Below, piece after piece: positions 1 through 14,969 of a stretch of 15,305 nucleotides of DNA. Below the pieces are notes generated by a model. That model saw only the letters and a list, made by a program, of their open reading frames with translations, was not told where the DNA came from and did not search any database. Each line of letters starts with the position of its first letter. Position 1 is the first letter of the stretch. The position numbers and the translations under genes are program-made. Origin of the DNA: Candidatus Hodarchaeota archaeon. GTDB lineage: Archaea; Asgardarchaeota; Heimdallarchaeia; Hodarchaeales; Hodarchaeaceae. Where the stretch lies: assembly GCA_016839785.1 (NCBI GenBank), contig JAEOTQ010000144.1, positions 1-15,305 of the forward strand, given 5' to 3'.

Positions 1-873
1 AAATCCACAGGTGTCATAAGCAATCCAATCATTGATTTTCTCAACATAATATGTTTTAACAACCTGTGCTGTTCCAACAGATTCATACCATGTGAGTCCA
101 GCAGAAATTTCTCCCTGATCATCAAGAGAAAGAATTGTATCAATTGCAGTTATAACACCTAGTTTAAATACATCTCTCCGCACATTATGTGCAAACACAG
201 TGACATTCGTAAAAACTAAAGATTCTGTATTTGGGGGTGGACCCCGTAAGGTAACGGTAGGAACGACAAGTGATCCATTATTAGAAATCCTTCTTTGAAC
301 CTCTTCTCGGAAGACACCATACACTGTTTCAAAAAATGCAGGTGGTTCTAAATACATTTGAATTGCTGTTTTATCCTTATACGGATAATAATCCATCCGA
401 AAATAATTCCATTCCCACCATCCTCCTGAGTAGTGGGCTCTATACCACCAGTTAGAAACACTATTTATTGTATGTATGGTATGTGTATCAAGAGAAGCAT
501 TAAATGAATATACAAGATCGATTTTACTCATGGTATCCAAATAGACCAGAATATCAAATAATGAGAAAAATCCCGGATTGAAAAGATCGGATCTGATAGA
601 AGTAACATTCTTAGGATCAAAAGTGAAACTTCCAATAGAATCGATGGAAATTTGTCCTAGAAGACTAGGAGTAGTGTTACTATCCGGAGGCATGGTTAAT
701 AAAGTATTGTTGAAATCTTTTCCTTCAGGAGGAGGAATAGTTGTTGTTTCATCGTCATCGGGAGTATCATCAACTGGATCCGAGATCCATTGAAAGAGCA
801 ACGGAAGAGTAAAGGTAAGTATAACAGCAGCACTTAATCCTATCCAAATATATTTTCTATCAATCCAGCTCAT
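1..873 (-). CDS. Partial (3' end outside window) membrane-anchored surface protein with two tandem homologous domains, possibly DUF4430/transcobalamin-C-like beta-grasp
   Basis: Not in the ORF track. Manual translation is open from ATG at 873 to base 1: MSWIDRKYIWIGLSAAVILTFTLPLLFQWISDPVDDTPDDDETTTIPPPE...YYVEKINDWIAYDTCGF. It has an N-terminal hydrophobic helix, an acidic/Thr/Pro linker, six N-x-S/T sequons and a GAGG SD-like motif just upstream. Confidence 0.85.
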   Translation of the reverse strand, partial: MSWIDRKYIWIGLSAAVILTFTLPLLFQWISDPVDDTPDDDETTTIPPPEGKDFNNTLLTMPPDSNTTPSLLGQISIDSIGSFTFDPKNVTSIRSDLFNPGFFSLFDILVYLDTMSKIDLVYSFNASLDTHTIHTINSVSNWWYRAHYSGGWWEWNYFRMDYYPYKDKTAIQMYLEPPAFFETVYGVFREEVQRRISNNGSLVVPTVTLRGPPPNTESLVFTNVTVFAHNVRRDVFKLGVITAIDTILSLDDQGEISAGLTWYESVGTAQVVKTYYVEKINDWIAYDTCGF

Positions 874-2632: not shown

Positions 2633-4372
2633 ATGAGTAGTCCTACGTCCCCATCTGATGAAACCATAATTACTAAGATAAAGGCAAATCGATTAGACCA
2701 AATAATCCAGATTCTTGAAATTTCATTTATCTTTATGATTTGTTATTCAATCATCACACTAGTAGATGCGGCCTTTTTGGAATTGAACTTATATAATCCC
2801 TTGGGAGATTTCTTGGGGGATGAAGGTATTGGGAATTTAAATGGTGGACATTTTGAAGAAATTGTTCGAGTTACCCTGATTTTTAATCTTCTACTGTTTT
2901 CTGTAAGTCTAATATTCGGTCTGTGGATGCGACGTGCACGAGATGGATGGTCATTCAGCCAATTAGGATACACCTTAAAAACACCCAATTACTCTTTTGG
3001 TTCCCTTGTCCGACGTGGATTGCTTTTAGGTTTCATTGTAATTCTCGTATGGTATACTCTTGTCACTTTTGTACAATTTTTGCTGATTGGTGATTTACAA
3101 GAAGCTATTTTCATGCATCATTCTTTTCAAAGCAATGGGACTCTTCTTGATTCTCACCAGTTGCTAGCAGAATATTATTTTGGATTCATAGAGATGGGGT
3201 TCATTTGGCCATTATCTGCTGGGTTTTTCTTCTTCGCTTATGTTCATAATTCGTTGAAAGCACGGTTTCCTTTTGGGATAGCGAACCTTCTAGCCACATT
3301 TTTCTACGTTACTTACCTGGCCTTTTTCTTTATGATCCCGTCAAGAGGGAAGTTCGATTTCATTATTCCAGCCATTAAAGATCCAATGTTTTGGGCCATG
3401 CTCATGAGTTTTGCAGTGGTCCTCTATATCTCATTCAGTGCTTTTGCTGAAACAGGATCGGTGGTCCTACCATTTTTATTAAACTTTGTTTTGAATGTAG
3501 GTTTAACATTATTTAAATCAATAAATTCACTTCTTTTCAACTCAAGTCCAGAATTAGATTATTTTTGGATGATTATTCCATATCTAGTAGTATTGACAAT
3601 TATTGTGATATGGTATTTTCTAAAACGAGAGGATTTTTCGACATTACGTCTCGGATTAGGTCATATTCGTGAAATATTTACAAAAAAATCTCGAAATGAA
3701 GTTTCATTGCGCGCAGCACTAGGAATATTTGGTTTATTCTTTACTCTCTCATTTATAGTCCCTGGTTTTATCGAATACATTGTTTCGAAAAGAATTGGCC
3801 AACCAGATCTATTTTCTACGGAACTGGTAAGTCTAGTCTATGCTTTAACGTATGTGGTTATTATTGGGCTAGCAATTATTGTTCTTACGTATGAGCCAAC
3901 AGAAGTTTTCGATGTACTATTGGTAAAAATGCCTGATGGGATTCCAATTGCACAGAGGCTTAAGCTTTTCCAATCAGATGAAGTATTAATCTCGGGTTTT
4001 TTCACAGCGATTTCTAGTGTGTCAAAGGAATTGGATGAAGACGAAAAAGCTGATCTTCGATCAATTAAAAGGGGAGAGCGGGAAATCATTCTTGAAGATG
4101 GAGTATTCACCAGAATTATTGCTTTAGTAGATCGAGATCAAAATCGCATCCGTCAAATGATGCAGGATATGCTGCGTAAATTTGAATCTGCTAATTCCAC
4201 AGCCCTAGCAAATTGGATAGGTGATGTTAATGCGATTCCAGAGGCAAAAACTCTTGTAAAAGAGATGGGTAGACTTTCAATTCGGTTTGATATACCAAAT
4301 CAAACACGCCTGATAGGTGTACTGACAGTATTACTTACTCCCCTTATGATTACGCTTATCGGTTTTATCTAA
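2633..4372 (+). CDS. Polytopic membrane protein: degenerate CPBP/Abi-like N-terminal region, longin/roadblock-like domain and terminal TM helix
   Basis: About 10-11 hydrophobic segments precede a soluble stretch VFDVLLVKMPDGIPI...DEVLISGFFTAISSVSKEL...LRSIKRGEREIILE...KFE...LANWIGDV, which matches the pattern of Asgard longin-like domains. A final hydrophobic helix follows. AAGGAG SD-like motif upstream. Confidence 0.75.
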   Translation: MSSPTSPSDETIITKIKANRLDQIIQILEISFIFMICYSIITLVDAAFLELNLYNPLGDFLGDEGIGNLNGGHFEEIVRVTLIFNLLLFSVSLIFGLWMRRARDGWSFSQLGYTLKTPNYSFGSLVRRGLLLGFIVILVWYTLVTFVQFLLIGDLQEAIFMHHSFQSNGTLLDSHQLLAEYYFGFIEMGFIWPLSAGFFFFAYVHNSLKARFPFGIANLLATFFYVTYLAFFFMIPSRGKFDFIIPAIKDPMFWAMLMSFAVVLYISFSAFAETGSVVLPFLLNFVLNVGLTLFKSINSLLFNSSPELDYFWMIIPYLVVLTIIVIWYFLKREDFSTLRLGLGHIREIFTKKSRNEVSLRAALGIFGLFFTLSFIVPGFIEYIVSKRIGQPDLFSTELVSLVYALTYVVIIGLAIIVLTYEPTEVFDVLLVKMPDGIPIAQRLKLFQSDEVLISGFFTAISSVSKELDEDEKADLRSIKRGEREIILEDGVFTRIIALVDRDQNRIRQMMQDMLRKFESANSTALANWIGDVNAIPEAKTLVKEMGRLSIRFDIPNQTRLIGVLTVLLTPLMITLIGFI

Positions 4373-4403: not shown

Positions 4404-5066
4404 TTATCGATTCAATATGCGAACCCATTCATAAACAGGTTCACATAACTTTTCTATTCGTTCTTTCTCTGCATTCATTGGTGAAGGTGACCATTCTGGA
4501 TCAGGTTCAAACCAAAAGTCGATAATATTCCCAACTCGGTCTTCTTCATTAGCAAATTTTACCACGACTGGCATATTGGTTTCAGTATGCCAAGGTTTGT
4601 CAATTTTTAGAATATTTGCGATAGCTGTTTTACTTTCCCCAACAAGAACATAGGCTAGGACGAATGGTAATTTCTTCAAGGCACTTTTTGCTGCAAAGCC
4701 ACAAATGGTAAAAGTATGAAGAATACCAGTCATGGGCATTTCTACCCAGTCAGTAATTTCTAATTTGCAATCAAGATTCCAACAGTTTACACGGGGAGGA
4801 AAAGTGACATCTCCACACTTTGGGCATTTCGTCCCCATTAGCTTCCCATTCATTAAACCCTTGGCATACGGACTCAAGGCTCCTAGACGAAAGGTGTACA
4901 GCATATCATAATAAATCTGTTGTTCTACCCAATCTGATCCATCCGCTGCTGATCCTGCACGGAAGTTTTGCCAGACCCATCCTTTTTCAGGTATTAATTT
5001 ACTTAGCTTTTTCCAGTCTTCCCAATCGAAGTCGTTATTATTTGGTGTTGGATGAAGTTTTGTCAT
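4404..5066 (-). CDS. Zn-ribbon/OB-fold protein (DUF35/ChsH2-C family), thiolase partner
   Basis: GKLMGTKCPKCGDVTFPPRVNC zinc ribbon, followed by an OB-fold pattern (WVEMPMTGILHTFT...LPFVLAYVLV...MPVVVKF). It starts 12 bp after the thiolase stop, with a GAGGTG SD overlapping that stop. Confidence 0.92.
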   Translation of the reverse strand: MTKLHPTPNNNDFDWEDWKKLSKLIPEKGWVWQNFRAGSAADGSDWVEQQIYYDMLYTFRLGALSPYAKGLMNGKLMGTKCPKCGDVTFPPRVNCWNLDCKLEITDWVEMPMTGILHTFTICGFAAKSALKKLPFVLAYVLVGESKTAIANILKIDKPWHTETNMPVVVKFANEEDRVGNIIDFWFEPDPEWSPSPMNAEKERIEKLCEPVYEWVRILNR

Positions 5067-5078
5067 TTCTTTTGCACC

Positions 5079-6347
5079 TCACACTCTCTTTAATATGAAA
5101 TTGCTAATAGAAGTCCCTGTACCAGCATGAGAATTCACTAGTCCAACTTCAGCATCCTTGACTTCATTATCAGTGCTTTTATGTTCTCGTGGGACTAATC
5201 CAGTGAGTTGATAATAGCACTCTATAGCAGACATAAGACCTGTTGCGCCAACAGGATGTCCATATCCTATTAATCCTCCACCGGGATTAGTAGGGATTTC
5301 TCCGTCCATCATGGGCATTTTATCCCGTATGAACTGTTTTGGGGTTGTAGATTCACACCAACCAAGTGCATTATAAATCTGAAATTCTGACGTACTAAAT
5401 GCATCATGGACCTCTGCAACATCGATTTGTTTATGCGAATCTTTCCAGTTTATTCCCGCCATTTTATAAGCCACTTCAGCTGAATGACGACACGCAGCAA
5501 ATTCCCCAAGCCCCGGATACCCCTCTCCATATCGCTCGGTCCAACCAGGAAATGCGTAGCGATCACCAGCTCGAATAGTGCATGAAGAGAGGCCAGCCCC
5601 TGTAATTTCGACATAATGATCAGGGGAATATTGTTTCGCGTATTTCTCATTGGTTACAAGAATAGTAGCAGCTCCTTCAGACATAAAACAACAATCCCAT
5701 TTCTTTAAAGGATAGGATATTAAGCGACTGCCCATTACATCATCGACTGTTAATTTTTTACCAACCTTACGATAATGCTGGGCTTTCTCACCTGTTGCTA
5801 TGGCGTTATTCTTATTTTTGACTGCAATCTCAGCAAAATCTTCTTCTGTTAGACCGTATTCTTCCATGAAAATACGTGCTAATCCAGCATAATAGTTAGT
5901 ATAGTTTGCTCCCAGCATAGCTTCATATCTGGTATCTGATGCGATAGCAATAAACTCAGATCCCTTACTCTGAGAAACAGATCCCATCAATTCATATCCG
6001 ATAACTGGGACAACATCAGCTAACCCTGCTCTAACTAGTGCATAGGCCGCATAAAGGGCGCTTCCCCCTGTATTACCTCCGTTGTCAATTCTGAAGTGGG
6101 GTACTCCAACTAAACCGAGGTGATCGTGTAGAATCCAGTAAGAAGTCAATTGATGAGCAAAATGGACACTAAAATGACTATAAACAACCATTCCATCCTC
6201 TCTCACATCCTTCAGATGAAAATTTGGAATATCATCATATAATTGACGAATTGTATTGGCAACAAGCTCCTCAATCTGTAGGTTTACTGGATAATCAAAA
6301 GGAGTGGTCGTACCTCCTGCAATGAATACTTGTTGTTGTTCAGGCAT
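5079..6347 (-). CDS. Thiolase-superfamily protein (SCP2-thiolase/Ltp-like) lacking the catalytic cysteines
   Basis: Motifs AEIAVKNKNNA, DCCFMSEGAA, DVAEVHDAFS, PTNPGGGLIGYGHPVGATG. The start is placed at ATG 6347 (MPEQQQVFIAGG) because an AGAGGA SD lies just upstream and the longer extension is AT-rich promoter-like sequence. Confidence 0.92.
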   Translation of the reverse strand: MPEQQQVFIAGGTTTPFDYPVNLQIEELVANTIRQLYDDIPNFHLKDVREDGMVVYSHFSVHFAHQLTSYWILHDHLGLVGVPHFRIDNGGNTGGSALYAAYALVRAGLADVVPVIGYELMGSVSQSKGSEFIAIASDTRYEAMLGANYTNYYAGLARIFMEEYGLTEEDFAEIAVKNKNNAIATGEKAQHYRKVGKKLTVDDVMGSRLISYPLKKWDCCFMSEGAATILVTNEKYAKQYSPDHYVEITGAGLSSCTIRAGDRYAFPGWTERYGEGYPGLGEFAACRHSAEVAYKMAGINWKDSHKQIDVAEVHDAFSTSEFQIYNALGWCESTTPKQFIRDKMPMMDGEIPTNPGGGLIGYGHPVGATGLMSAIECYYQLTGLVPREHKSTDNEVKDAEVGLVNSHAGTGTSISNFILKRV

Positions 6348-6365
6348 AGTTAATCCTCTATAATT

Positions 6366-6378
6366 CTCTTTATAATAC
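6366..6378 (-). promoter_or_regulatory. Candidate TATA box for the thiolase-DUF35 operon
   Basis: Minus strand reads TTATAAAAG about 25 nt upstream of ATG 6347. Confidence 0.35.
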
Positions 6379-6407
6379 CTCACAAAATTTCTTTTACGAG
6401 TTTTCAC

Positions 6408-8227: not shown

Positions 8228-9181
8228 ATGATCATTGGAGAGACAGACTTGAGTATGACACAATTTAAGGCGATAATTGATCTTTTACGTTTTACACTTG
8301 GAATCTTAAGTAGTTTTGCCGTCCTCTCTGCTGGTTTTATTGTGTACGTCCTTGAGGGGAATAGTCCCGACTTTGTTTCATTCTTTTTTGAGAATGGAGT
8401 TCTGGAATGGCCAGGGATATTATTAGGTCTGTTTGCAACTATGCTCCTAACTTGGGGGAATCAAGCAGTAAACGATCTTTTTGATGTAGAAACAGATATT
8501 GCAAATCAACGCTTTGATCGTCCTTTGGCTCGGGGGGATCTTTCACATAATTTTGTAAAGATTCTGACCTTTCTGCTATTCTCAACGGCTGTGATCATAA
8601 TAGGTGGTCTTGTACTAGTGTATAAAGTTACTATTGCCCTATTTATATTTACTCTATTATTTGTAATAATTGGAGTAGGATATAATTTCGGTGTTAAACA
8701 ACTAGGATTTATTGGTAATATCTGGGTGGCTATAGGATATGTAGCACCGTTGTTTATAGGGTTCTTTATGCTAAGTCCCCAAGAAGCCTTAACTATCATG
8801 GCCTGTGCAATCATCTTGAACTCTACTTTCTTCATGAGTGTTGGTCGGGAAGTTATCAAAGATATTCAGGATTATGAGGGAGATAAACAACAGCATCTCA
8901 ATTCATTAGCAGTAAAATACGGGCCCAAAAATGCGAGTATTGTTGCAACTATCTTTTTTCTTATTACTATTTTATCCTCTCTTGTTGCAGGTATATTCGT
9001 GTACAAAAATCTGGTGTTTTGGGTTTTTGATGCTGGTTTTGCACTAATCCTTTTATTAACGAGTTATACCATTTTTGTAGAAAAGACTCAAGGTGGGAAG
9101 AAAGCACGAAAATATACACGTTGGTCATTATGGGTAGCCTTAGGCGCTTTTTTCTTTGGGATATTCTTTATTCCAACATAA
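8228..9181 (+). CDS. UbiA-family prenyltransferase, geranylgeranylglycerol-phosphate geranylgeranyltransferase (DGGGP synthase)-like
   Basis: First Asp-rich motif NQAVNDLFDVETD..N...RPLARG and second motif REVIKDIQDYEGD are typical of the DGGGPS subfamily. About 8-9 TM segments. Alternative start at ATG 8255. Confidence 0.88.
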   Translation: MIIGETDLSMTQFKAIIDLLRFTLGILSSFAVLSAGFIVYVLEGNSPDFVSFFFENGVLEWPGILLGLFATMLLTWGNQAVNDLFDVETDIANQRFDRPLARGDLSHNFVKILTFLLFSTAVIIIGGLVLVYKVTIALFIFTLLFVIIGVGYNFGVKQLGFIGNIWVAIGYVAPLFIGFFMLSPQEALTIMACAIILNSTFFMSVGREVIKDIQDYEGDKQQHLNSLAVKYGPKNASIVATIFFLITILSSLVAGIFVYKNLVFWVFDAGFALILLLTSYTIFVEKTQGGKKARKYTRWSLWVALGAFFFGIFFIPT

Positions 9182-9199
9182 TCATCGAGGTAACAATAA

Positions 9200-10582
9200 A
9201 TGGAACATTCAACAGAAAATACAACAACAGATAAATCGAAAATTCAGCTAAAAGATATTCTCTATGTTTTCGCAGTTCTTTTAATATTAGTATCATGCTT
9301 TGATTTATTAGGAACGATTTTCGCTCTTGGTATTACTTTTGGGAGTTTTACTGCTCTCATCCCACCGATAGGGGAGAATGAAACGATATACAATTTATTC
9401 CTGAATTTTGGTGCTCAAGTAGGAGCAATAATTGGATTTCTAATTTTATACAAATTGAGAAAAATCGAGCCAGAAGAGAAAAAGAATCCTAAGGGTCCCT
9501 TTATTCAAATCACATATGTGTTGCATGCCCTAGATTTAATTTTCATCCTAACTGTTGTATTAGCTGTTACCTATATCTTGGAAGAAATATTAGATGTCTC
9601 AACTACAGCTCCGACTTCGATAGAACCAACCCTAGCTTCATTAGGGGATCCCCTATTCTTTATACTTTTCTTTGGCGTTTTAGCGGTAGGTGCTCCAATC
9701 TGGGAAGAATTAGTTTTTAGACGCACATTAATACCAATGTTTGAGAGAAGAGGTTTTGGTCAAGCTTGGGCATTATTATTTACAAGTTTAATGTTCTCAT
9801 TACGGCATACGCCTACTGATCTATTTGAAGGGTCTCTAGGTTTTGCAATCTCTCATTTCTTTAGCACACTCATTGGAGGTTTAATGTTAGGGTTTTTGTA
9901 TCTGAGAACTAGAAACATATTTTGGCCAATATTACTGCACAGCATTACTAATTCCTTTTATGGACTTGCTCAAATTGCTAATACTGAGCTTGAAGCAGGA
10001 TTAGATATCTCAATGGCAATGATTGCTTCTTCTTATTGGCTTTTGATTGCAATAGGTGTTGGAGCTGTAGCAACGCTCTATTTTGGGGTGCAATTGGTGT
10101 TTAGAGGAAGAAGGCAATTCAAACCGATTTGGTTGCAGATAATTACAGAAACCAAGAACAGAACTAGCTCAATTCTTACTTTTTCTCTCTTGGTTATTGG
10201 TTTTATTCTCTTTTCAGGAGCTGTACCGATTTTTTTCGATTATGTTGCAGATTTAATGAATCCTACATCTGAATCTGGGGTATATTTAGTTTATATGTTT
10301 CAGATTTTCTTTTTTGCGATAGTAGTGGGCATTCTGGGACTTTTCATATTTAGAAAAGCTCAACCATTTACGAAACCGATCTTTGTCTCAACAAAGGTAG
10401 TAGATCCAACGGCCCAGATATTTATTCGTAAACCAGATTTCATTCCAACGGTTATTCCTGCTGATAGCGCACGATGCGTGTCTTGCGGTAATACTATATT
10501 ACCTAATGCAAAGTTTTGTGCTTTTTGTGGATCGGACCTCAGTATCGAAAGTGATGATCCAGATAAATGGGAAAAAATCTAA
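9200..10582 (+). CDS. CPBP/Abi (Rce1-like, type II CAAX) intramembrane glutamic protease with a C-terminal zinc ribbon
   Basis: Intact motifs APIWEELVFRR (EExxxR), FSLRH (FxxxH) and ILLHSITN (HxxxN). C-terminal CVSCG...AKFCAFCG zinc ribbon. GAGGT SD. Confidence 0.92.
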   Translation: MEHSTENTTTDKSKIQLKDILYVFAVLLILVSCFDLLGTIFALGITFGSFTALIPPIGENETIYNLFLNFGAQVGAIIGFLILYKLRKIEPEEKKNPKGPFIQITYVLHALDLIFILTVVLAVTYILEEILDVSTTAPTSIEPTLASLGDPLFFILFFGVLAVGAPIWEELVFRRTLIPMFERRGFGQAWALLFTSLMFSLRHTPTDLFEGSLGFAISHFFSTLIGGLMLGFLYLRTRNIFWPILLHSITNSFYGLAQIANTELEAGLDISMAMIASSYWLLIAIGVGAVATLYFGVQLVFRGRRQFKPIWLQIITETKNRTSSILTFSLLVIGFILFSGAVPIFFDYVADLMNPTSESGVYLVYMFQIFFFAIVVGILGLFIFRKAQPFTKPIFVSTKVVDPTAQIFIRKPDFIPTVIPADSARCVSCGNTILPNAKFCAFCGSDLSIESDDPDKWEKI

Positions 10583-14066: not shown

Positions 14067-14969
14067 CTAAGTAACTGTCTGGTCAATTGATAGGGGGAAT
14101 ACAATATTGAAGGTTGATTGAGTTAGCCAACAGCGGAGATTAAAATACGCTGCGATGTACTGAAAATAGTGGTTAATTAGGCGATAACTTTGTAACGAGG
14201 ACAAATAGTGATCATATGGAATACAGAAACTAAGTTTGGTCGAAACACGGTTTAACTGCTCTAATTCTATGGTCACAGGTTCTGTCTCAAACCATGTGAG
14301 AGTGGTAATGCAAAAATTTGCTAGGAAATGTTCACTTCCATATATCACAGGATTTGAGTTAAAATACGGCTCTTGGTATCCATCACCTGCTTGAACATGA
14401 AATCGGACTCTGGAAGGATCAGGAGAAGATCCCCAACTTTTTGAAATGACTCCTGATAATGTTGCGGGAGATAAAGGAGGAGGAGCACTTAAGAGCTGTA
14501 TAAAATCAGATGCAATAAGAGTACTCATTTTTTGTCGATGTGAGGCAGATCTAAGGGTTTCAAAAAGATAAGGAAGCGAGGAATTCGACGTTTCTTGTAT
14601 CAATCTTGTGCCAAGTCCCATGATTAGACTCGCAGTCCGGAGTTCATGGATAAGATCTTCAACCCACATTTGTTGATAGGGTAAAGGAACAGTTGTCGTT
14701 TTATTACAGGAATATACGTCATAAATTAAATGGGAATCTTCCATAAGATTGAAACTAACATCGTGAGTATTAAGCTGGGATAGGCGAGGGAATGACTGAG
14801 AAGGGTTAAGACCACTTATTTCCGCAAAAGATTGCGTGTAATAAAGGATTACATCGTCATCTGTGATGATATACGATTGAAAAGGATTAGTAAAGACTTT
14901 TTCAGTAGTGGATTGTTGATGAATTATAATCATCCCCTGGTTTTCTTGGTTTGGATTGGGTAATCTCAT
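14067..14969 (-). CDS. Hypothetical protein, degenerate PAS plus histidine-kinase-like
   Basis: SYIITDDDVILYYTQSFAEISGL resembles the start of a PAS domain and EDLIHELRT resembles a HisKA H-box. No recognisable N, G1 or G2 boxes. Confidence 0.6.
   Translation of the reverse strand: MRLPNPNQENQGMIIIHQQSTTEKVFTNPFQSYIITDDDVILYYTQSFAEISGLNPSQSFPRLSQLNTHDVSFNLMEDSHLIYDVYSCNKTTTVPLPYQQMWVEDLIHELRTASLIMGLGTRLIQETSNSSLPYLFETLRSASHRQKMSTLIASDFIQLLSAPPPLSPATLSGVISKSWGSSPDPSRVRFHVQAGDGYQEPYFNSNPVIYGSEHFLANFCITTLTWFETEPVTIELEQLNRVSTKLSFCIPYDHYLSSLQSYRLINHYFQYIAAYFNLRCWLTQSTFNIVFPLSIDQTVT

Follow-up and report, generated by a model that had tools for sequence, protein, structure and literature searches.

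CPBP/Rce1-like proteases (PF02517), of which Methanococcus maripaludis Rce1 (PDB 4CAD) is an example, have a body of eight membrane helices. The catalytic residues of Rce1 lie on helices 4, 5 and 7. According to the account in PMC13692083 on which we draw, the catalytic dyad consists of the first Glu of the EExxxR motif and the His of FxxxH, the oxyanion hole is made by the His and Asn of a third motif, HxxxN, and the second Glu and the Arg of EExxxR form a buried salt bridge that is kept in non-catalytic CPBPs too. The subject of this work is P0001, a polytopic membrane protein of 579 residues encoded by an open reading frame (ORF; 2633-4372 including the stop codon, plus strand) in 15,305 nucleotides of DNA from Candidatus Hodarchaeota archaeon (contig JAEOTQ010000144.1), a stretch called the window below. 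We consider it probable, though far from assured, that P0001 is a non-catalytic (pseudo-protease) CPBP/Rce1-fold scaffold joined to a longin module that is tethered to the membrane, with a cavity that binds a ligand and a longin domain that docks a partner.

CPBP folds that serve without proteolysis are represented in bacteria by SpdC/LyrA (PDB 6U0O), Abx1, CflP and SpbR, and the scaffold role proposed here for P0001 would resemble theirs. SpdC scaffolds SagB and may bind a lipid carrier; the kinase CovS is tuned by Abx1 and CflP in a manner that does not need the catalytic residues; and the first Glu of CflP is Val (PMC13692083; 10.1101/2020.05.21.109470). As far as they are described in PMC13692083, these bacterial proteins keep the salt bridge between the second Glu and the Arg and mostly keep their His residues. 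P0001, in contrast, lacks the salt bridge. The bacterial proteins also have known partners and no longin domain, whereas P0001 carries one. By likeness to them, a scaffold or receptor role is the most likely one for P0001. As far as our literature search shows, non-catalytic CPBP scaffolds have so far been known only from a few Gram-positive bacteria, and P0001 would be an archaeal and more extreme case. A search of the literature that covered the main texts of papers found no description of a CPBP-longin fusion in which a dead body is followed by a hairpin, a longin domain and an anchor helix. A looser analogy is with the iRhoms, which are dead rhomboids, and APH-1 of gamma-secretase, a proposed CPBP relative. 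Both are membrane scaffolds in which an intramembrane protease fold is reused for binding after the loss of catalysis, although they belong to other folds or lineages than P0001 and have no longin domain.

The P0001 gene is genuine and conserved. A word-indexed search returned 78 homologues (42-100% identity, 324-602 residues, the full-length ones mostly about 560-600 residues), and those that carry labels are mostly 'hypothetical' proteins from metagenome-assembled genomes of Hodarchaeales, Heimdallarchaeota or Kariarchaeaceae. Pfam and NCBIfam scans gave P0001 no family name. An exhaustive phmmer search found 83 proteins at E<=0.001. The membrane part matched only family members and their fragments, plus the distant full-length protein P0086 (31% identity, E 1.5e-51), while residues ~375-562 additionally matched dozens of proteins of unrelated length (61-1724 residues). 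P0086 forms a sister clade with P0158, P0159 and P0160; these four are 28-31% identical to P0001 over the full length and are reached from it in a full-length match at E 1.5e-51. One family member, P0073 (500 residues, from an ENA contig), has a rearranged order with the longin piece ahead of the motif helices, and is the only member with a precomputed Fuz_longin_1 match; it is probably a chimera of assembly or gene calling. In a metatranscriptome library (X3), at least six short contigs (151-181 nucleotides, 0-4 differences) fall inside the ORF and at least two in the pyruvate kinase gene upstream. These RNA contigs are a weak hint and do not demonstrate transcription, and stretches that no contig covers say nothing either way.

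The CPBP motifs of P0001 survive as remnants in the right places, and almost all of the residues that matter for catalysis have been replaced. The remnants are collinear on helices 4, 5 and 7 with canonical spacing, and a T-x-S turn precedes helix 7. A sequence-only reading of the window had aligned them to the CPBP pattern by eye, and hhalign arrived at the same register for all three motifs: A196-G197 on EE, F200-F201-A202 on F-R-G, F224...Y228 on FxxxH, and T274-x-S276...N284...N288 on T-x-S...HxxxN. The peptides quoted in that reading also lie where it placed them, IWPLSAGFFFF... from residue 191 (nucleotide 3203) and AFAETGSVVLPFLLNFVLN at residues 270-288 (nucleotides 3440-3496). Another register, at residues 122-135 (FGSLVRRG on EExxFRG), was preferred by a realigned hhalign run and was rejected as spurious; the segment is only partly conserved. 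P0001 itself is not a CPBP in the strict sense, as its sequence falls short of the profile cut-off and contains none of EExxxR, FxxxH and HxxxN intact.

To see how general these replacements are, 82 family sequences were aligned, and residues were counted among the sequences covering each position. The first Glu of motif 1 is Ala in 77/77 and the Arg is Phe in 77/77. The second Glu is Gly in all 73 main-clade sequences and remains Glu in the four sister-clade sequences (A-E-x-x-x-F). The motif-2 His is Tyr in 78/78. In motif 3, the His has become Asn (75/78) or Thr (3/78) in the main clade, is kept in all four members of the sister clade, which thus retain HxxxN, and is followed by an Asn (N288) that is invariant throughout (82/82). 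Judged by this alignment, the catalytic Glu/His dyad is lost in every homologue that covers the dyad positions, which answers the question raised by the sequence-only reading of whether the loss extends to orthologues.

The former active site is not decaying. The same alignment shows strong purifying conservation centred on the former active-site helices: helix 4 (mean column identity 0.85) and helix 5 (0.79) are the best conserved segments of the protein, and 20 of the 35 helix-4 columns are at least 90% identical. The least conserved are helices 8-10 (0.45-0.49), including the hairpin of membrane helices 9 and 10 (TM9, TM10) that leads into the longin domain. This pattern points to a binding function that the former site has kept.

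The resemblance of the membrane body to CPBPs becomes credible only through the sister clade and through fold comparisons. Three of the four sister-clade members match the Pfam Rce1-like model (E 3.7e-4, 0.0072 and 0.017), over positions 5-93 or 8-93 of its 93. The genome of the window encodes 12 canonical CPBPs, one of them within the window, and 11 were used as a paralogue set for hhalign. Against this set the sister-clade core gave P 3.2e-4 and the combined core P 0.0015, each time in the register described above, with scores of 29.8 and 26.3 for the forward profiles vs 9.5-11.9 for reversed ones.

Fold comparisons point the same way. When an AlphaFold2 (AF2) model of residues 1-420 was compared with BFVD using Foldseek, four of the 50 matches listed had a probability of at least 0.54 and the other 46 were at 0.21 or less. 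The top match was an unnamed protein of 280 residues (probability 1.00, template modelling (TM) score 0.53 by target). Another was a phage 'CAAX protease self-immunity' protein (probability 0.99, TM score 0.61 by target, root-mean-square deviation (rmsd) 6.4 over 272 columns), and the remaining two were one at probability 0.75 and Bacillus phage G gp60 at 0.54. The ESM Atlas model of P0158 aligned to two PF02517 clusters with TM scores of 0.78 and 0.57 by target (0.45 and 0.46 by query), over residues 79-299 and 73-349. CPBP clusters were also the top language-model neighbours of P0001 (0.87) and P0158 (0.89, 171/256 features), scores that, being below 0.9, serve as leads only. The BFVD and Atlas matches, together with a sister clade near the Pfam cut-off, bear out the CPBP-type fold that had been predicted for the N-terminal body, with solved Rce1 and SpdC structures missing from the PDB matches considered below. 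Taking all of this together, the membrane body very probably descends from a CPBP.

The longin fold of residues 423-546 is well supported by structural modelling. In the AF2 model the domain runs through strands 423-432 and 438-442, helix 450-469, strands 477-480, 483-489 and 493-499, and helices 504-520 and 536-546. This order (β-β-α-β-β-β-α-α), without an N-terminal helix and with two C-terminal helices, is the one that marks longin domains in the contrast drawn by Tran et al. 2024 (PMC10933270). A Foldseek search of the PDB with the whole model matched solved longin domains at probability 1.00, with TM scores by target of 0.63 for Sec22b 1ifq_A, 0.57 for 2nut_C, 0.54 for the AP-1 sigma subunit (9ddt_B), and 0.52 for both Ykt6 (3bw6) and the sedlin complex (2j3w_C). 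Further longin matches were VAMP7 (4afi_A), zeta-COP (5mc7_A), Fuzzy/CPLANE (7q3d_C) and MON1A (9lol_B). Roadblock proteins, such as dynein LC7 and the C-terminal domains of Rag proteins, gave shorter or poorer alignments than longins. P0001 alone matches no curated longin or roadblock profile in Pfam. Among the 41 members scanned there are sub-threshold hints of Robl_LC7 in seven (best E 9.6e-4) and of Fuz_longin_1 in one (E 2.7e-5), and three of the four sister-clade members hint at Sybindin (E 0.015-0.033). A co-fold of two copies of residues 418-552 gave a score of 0.19 (mark 0.42) and counts neither way.

The sequence-only reading had described the C-terminal part as a soluble longin-like domain and had overlooked membrane helices 9-11 around it. 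The strand and helix order and the match to Sec22b agree with the longin assignment, and the domain itself is soluble, but it is not a free soluble tail. In the model (41-row alignment; mean predicted local distance difference test (pLDDT) 81 and predicted TM score (pTM) 0.77 for the whole protein, 86 and 0.84 for residues 1-420) the longin domain is held between membrane helices 10 and 11, and is thus tethered at both ends (Table 1). This separates P0001 from canonical CPBPs, to whose eight-helix body it adds three membrane helices and a longin domain. The positive-inside rule puts the N-terminus inside, the linker and the longin domain in the cytoplasm and the C-terminus outside. We infer this topology because the loop charges fit it: loops 51-73 and 153-176 are acidic (no K or R, three D or E), and the linker after the body is basic.

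Table 1. Coordinates of the P0001 regions and of other genes in the window
Feature	Window position	Residues of P0001	Strand	Basis or remark
CPBP/Rce1-like body, eight helices	2690..3622	20-330	+	AF2; Foldseek BFVD; Atlas; sister-clade Pfam
Helices of the body		20-50, 74-104, 122-152, 177-211, 214-234, 251-274, 278-304, 310-330	+	AF2
Motif 1 (EExxxR) remnant, PLSAGFFFFA	3209..3238	193-202	+	first Glu = A196, second Glu = G197, Arg = F201
Motif 2 (FxxxH) remnant, FYVTY	3302..3316	224-228	+	His replaced by Y228
Motif 3 (HxxxN) remnant, TGSVVLPFLLNFVLN	3452..3496	274-288	+	His replaced by N284; N288 kept
Basic helical linker, probably cytoplasmic	3623..3706	331-358	+	AF2 helices 332-348, 351-356; K+R 7 vs D+E 4
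Extra membrane hairpin, TM9 and TM10	3707..3889	359-419	+	AF2 helices 359-389, 396-419
Predicted longin-fold domain, probably cytoplasmic	3899..4270	423-546	+	AF2 and Foldseek
C-terminal membrane helix, TM11	4298..4366	556-578	+	AF2; conserved in the family alignment
DUF35-type protein (ChsH2 zinc ribbon and OB fold) adjoining thiolase	4404-6407		-	converges on the 3' end of the P0001 gene
UbiA-family prenyltransferase gene, then canonical CPBP protease	8228-10582 (UbiA 8228-9181)		+	18 nucleotides apart
Open-ended ORF	1-873		-	291 residues
ORF	14067-14969		-	300 residues

The best structural matches of the C-terminal domain are the eukaryotic longin SNAREs Sec22b, Ykt6 and VAMP7, in which, as in the predicted topology of P0001, a cytoplasmic longin domain goes together with a membrane helix at the C-terminus. 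Unlike theirs, the longin domain of P0001 is also anchored at its N-terminal side by a polytopic body. A SNARE function was considered and rejected, as the last longin helix and TM11 are only about nine residues apart (547-555), which leaves no room for a heptad motif of ~60 residues. Closer to home, the domain appears to be of the same kind as the longin/roadblock domains of Asgard archaea, which have been shuffled into many lineage-restricted multidomain proteins (PMC10933270; 10.1101/2020.10.19.343400). The Asgard fusions described in the portions of these two sources that we draw on involve GTPases, TRAPPC3/V4R, DENN and two-component domains, whereas in P0001 the longin domain is joined to a CPBP-like body and set between membrane helices.

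We propose that the former substrate cavity still binds a ligand in the plane of the membrane, which could be an isoprenoid lipid, or else a peptide or helix that a partner protein contributes within the membrane. Held flat against the inner face of the membrane, the longin domain would form a docking platform for a soluble partner, and P0001 would place or regulate that partner at the membrane. The likeliest docked partner would be one of the many Ras-superfamily GTPases of this genome, or another longin/roadblock protein. The genome has 58 Ras-family (PF00071) matches, all above the cut-off and none inside the window. A small GTPase is a plausible partner by analogy, because of the roles of eukaryotic longin domains and the GTPase load of the genome.

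If correct, P0001 gives a tangible example of how a longin domain is attached to a membrane in Heimdall-group archaea, and it would bear on the way GTPase platforms came to sit on membranes before there were eukaryotic endomembranes. Since it is compact and strongly conserved, with a clearly delimited soluble domain, P0001 is a practical target for structural and binding work. A more ambitious version, in which P0001 is a one-protein membrane receptor in the archaea most closely related to eukaryotes, seems to us a long shot: occupancy of the cavity by an isoprenoid lipid or by a lipid-anchored or membrane peptide would move the longin platform and thereby recruit or switch one of the ~58 Ras-like GTPases. 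Were this so, P0001 would stand as a forerunner, in prokaryotes, of GTPase platforms of the membrane-anchored longin/roadblock type (Ragulator, TRAPP and Mon1-Ccz1, for example), and would tie the CAAX-protease fold to small-GTPase biology at an early stage.

A good number of results weigh against a CPBP-derived longin scaffold with a GTPase partner. Pfam Rce1-like matches none of the 41 main-clade members at E<=10, and hhalign of the family or main-clade core against the 11 CPBP paralogues of the genome is not significant (P 0.08-0.13; core 0.13). A genome-wide hmmsearch with the family model showed no enrichment of the 12 CPBP paralogues in its matches, and P0001 is absent from the 2030 matches of the CPBP model in a search of the same kind. 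(One extra match, C135, looks like a spurious ORF.) A hidden Markov model of the CPBP paralogues gave family members only negative, bias-dominated scores, and PDB sequence searches with queries A1, A3 and P0158 returned nothing relevant. For P0001 and the main clade alone, the CPBP resemblance is no better than chance by profile methods.

Even the sister clade has its weaknesses. Its best Pfam score, 21.2 bits, is below the curated cut-off of 22.4, and one of its four members has no match. The hhalign support is only moderate, because block-shuffled CPBP profiles in which the motif blocks were kept reached the sister-clade score in 2/30 runs; they reached the combined-core score in 0/30. The pair that would form the salt bridge is absent, being G197/F201 in P0001 and E/F in the sister clade. 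Neither Rce1 nor SpdC is among the 50 PDB matches listed by Foldseek for residues 1-420, a search made without a positive control, and Foldseek E-values are weak for the membrane body (0.02-0.3 over all runs, none <=0.001). They are also weak for the longin matches (0.02-0.2, none <=0.001), partly because the query was the whole 579-residue model, and the pLDDT of longin helix 1 falls below 50 in places.

Gene context is equally unhelpful. Among 17 public loci, the neighbours seen in the window recur only in two close relatives (84-86% identity), and no GTPase or other partner is indicated. Of the Ras-family ORFs, 57 have a complete C-terminus, and a CaaX, CC or CXC ending occurs in none of them, which makes classical prenylation of the C-termini of this genome's GTPases look unlikely. 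On the same count, we discarded the idea that the former cavity binds prenylated GTPase tails.

The missing profile signal in the main clade is what one would expect if the body were not derived from a CPBP at all, being instead an unrelated domain of 10-11 helices, for example a transporter-like one, with a motif likeness due to convergence or chance. One hhalign run chose another register, block-shuffled profiles sometimes score as well as real ones, and the PDB matches listed for the body are all to TMEM16, LeuT and Nramp transporters or scramblases. These matches, however, are poor (probability <=0.44, TM score <=0.19, rmsd >17 A), and chance would have to account for a sister clade with HxxxN and one Glu at exactly the aligned positions, for three of its four members lying near the Pfam cut-off over the whole model, and for two independent fold comparisons whose only confident matches are CPBP models. 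We regard an unrelated body as unlikely. Still less likely is an active intramembrane hydrolase with a replacement catalytic set, such as E29 (helix 1) or E187 together with N288 and Y228. E29 is present in 71/72 covering sequences from both clades, E187 is E in 72/72 main-clade sequences, N288 is invariant, and the region of the former site is the most conserved part of the protein. Yet the sister clade has H, Y or F at the position of E187, both canonical dyad residues are gone in every sequence, and no CPBP that works without the canonical dyad is known from the account in PMC13692083. We think such an activity very improbable.

A GTPase-free role deserves more weight than either of these, and we hold it to be a minority prospect, well behind the docking scaffold. 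The dead body of P0001 would then bind and scaffold another membrane protein, an enzyme or a sensor, as in the pairs SpdC-SagB and CflP-CovS, and all that the longin domain would do is oligomerise the complex or cap the cytoplasmic face of the body. The non-catalytic CPBPs characterised in PMC13692083 and 10.1101/2020.05.21.109470 all act on membrane enzymes or kinases, some roadblock/longin proteins work outside GTPase regulation (Tran et al. 2024, PMC10933270), and no GTPase gene is linked to the P0001 gene. The full-length pTM of 0.77 also suggests that the longin domain packs against the body in a defined way. Against this role, there is no conserved neighbour of any kind, and a longin-type domain shuffled onto very many different Asgard proteins (143-3033 residues) is easier to reconcile with a docking module of general use than with a cap dedicated to one body.

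The distribution of the family and that of its longin module differ. In a profile search of 400 Asgard genomes, 199 had a match at E<=1e-10, and 22 had a family-level match (best E <=1e-73), including the genome of the window. The family-level protein thus turned up in only part of the Heimdallarchaeia. Family-level matches occurred in 8/21 other genomes of the same genus, in 2/2, 2/3 and 8/12 genomes of three further families of the same order or class, and in one genome of a family labelled only 'same phylum'; another family of the same class had none in 31 genomes. In the other 177 genomes, nearly all matches listed cover profile positions ~400-560 only, in ORFs of 143-3033 residues. Because these genomes match over the longin part in such diverse ORFs, the longin module is Asgard-wide and promiscuous. 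This agrees with the extensive shuffling of roadblock/longin domains in Asgard archaea described in the Liu et al. preprint (10.1101/2020.10.19.343400). Pfam scans of 18 phmmer relatives (17 longin-only proteins and P0086) found TPR, DUF11/CARDB or KaiC-like/DUF835 partners, or nothing. In two examples, a longin-type domain ends a 1395-residue surface-type repeat protein of DUF11/CARDB (P0116) and precedes a KaiC-like/DUF835 ATPase domain in a protein of 1128 residues (P0123).

Several congeneric genomes with a completeness of 91% or more have no P0001 gene. One orthologue (G056:C7:43341-45035) contains two in-frame stops, one TAG and one TAA. Because of this orthologue and the near-complete congeners without the gene, we take the gene to be dispensable and patchy.

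Upstream of the P0001 gene is a pyruvate kinase gene; downstream, a DUF35/thiolase pair runs towards it on the opposite strand. The neighbours common to the two close relatives are PyrK, DUF35, thiolase, UbiA and the CPBP-Zn-ribbon protein. No other neighbour recurs beyond near-identical pairs in the 17 loci, so the gene stands alone. A link to isoprenoid or lipid genes was dropped, as these neighbours are kept in only two close relatives of the 17 loci. In the mevalonate pathway of archaea, the thiolase/HMG-CoA synthase complex is known to contain such a DUF35-thiolase pairing. Elsewhere in the genome, contig C92 (85-924, minus strand) has two matches to Pfam Prenyltrans (PF00432, prenyltransferase/squalene-cyclase repeat; best E 9.8e-13). 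They lie at the contig edge, one of them with an in-frame TAA, and the same search found nothing in 14 control genomes. At the ends of the window, the open-ended ORF has no NCBIfam match (NCBIfam scan only) and is 63% identical to its counterpart in L017, one of the close relatives, and the 300-residue ORF has no Pfam match (Pfam scan only) and is 85% identical to its counterpart there. The canonical CPBP protease of the window has 460 residues, with EELVFR, FxxxH and HxxxN intact and a zinc ribbon at its C-terminus, and both close relatives, L013 and L017, retain the UbiA-CPBP pair.

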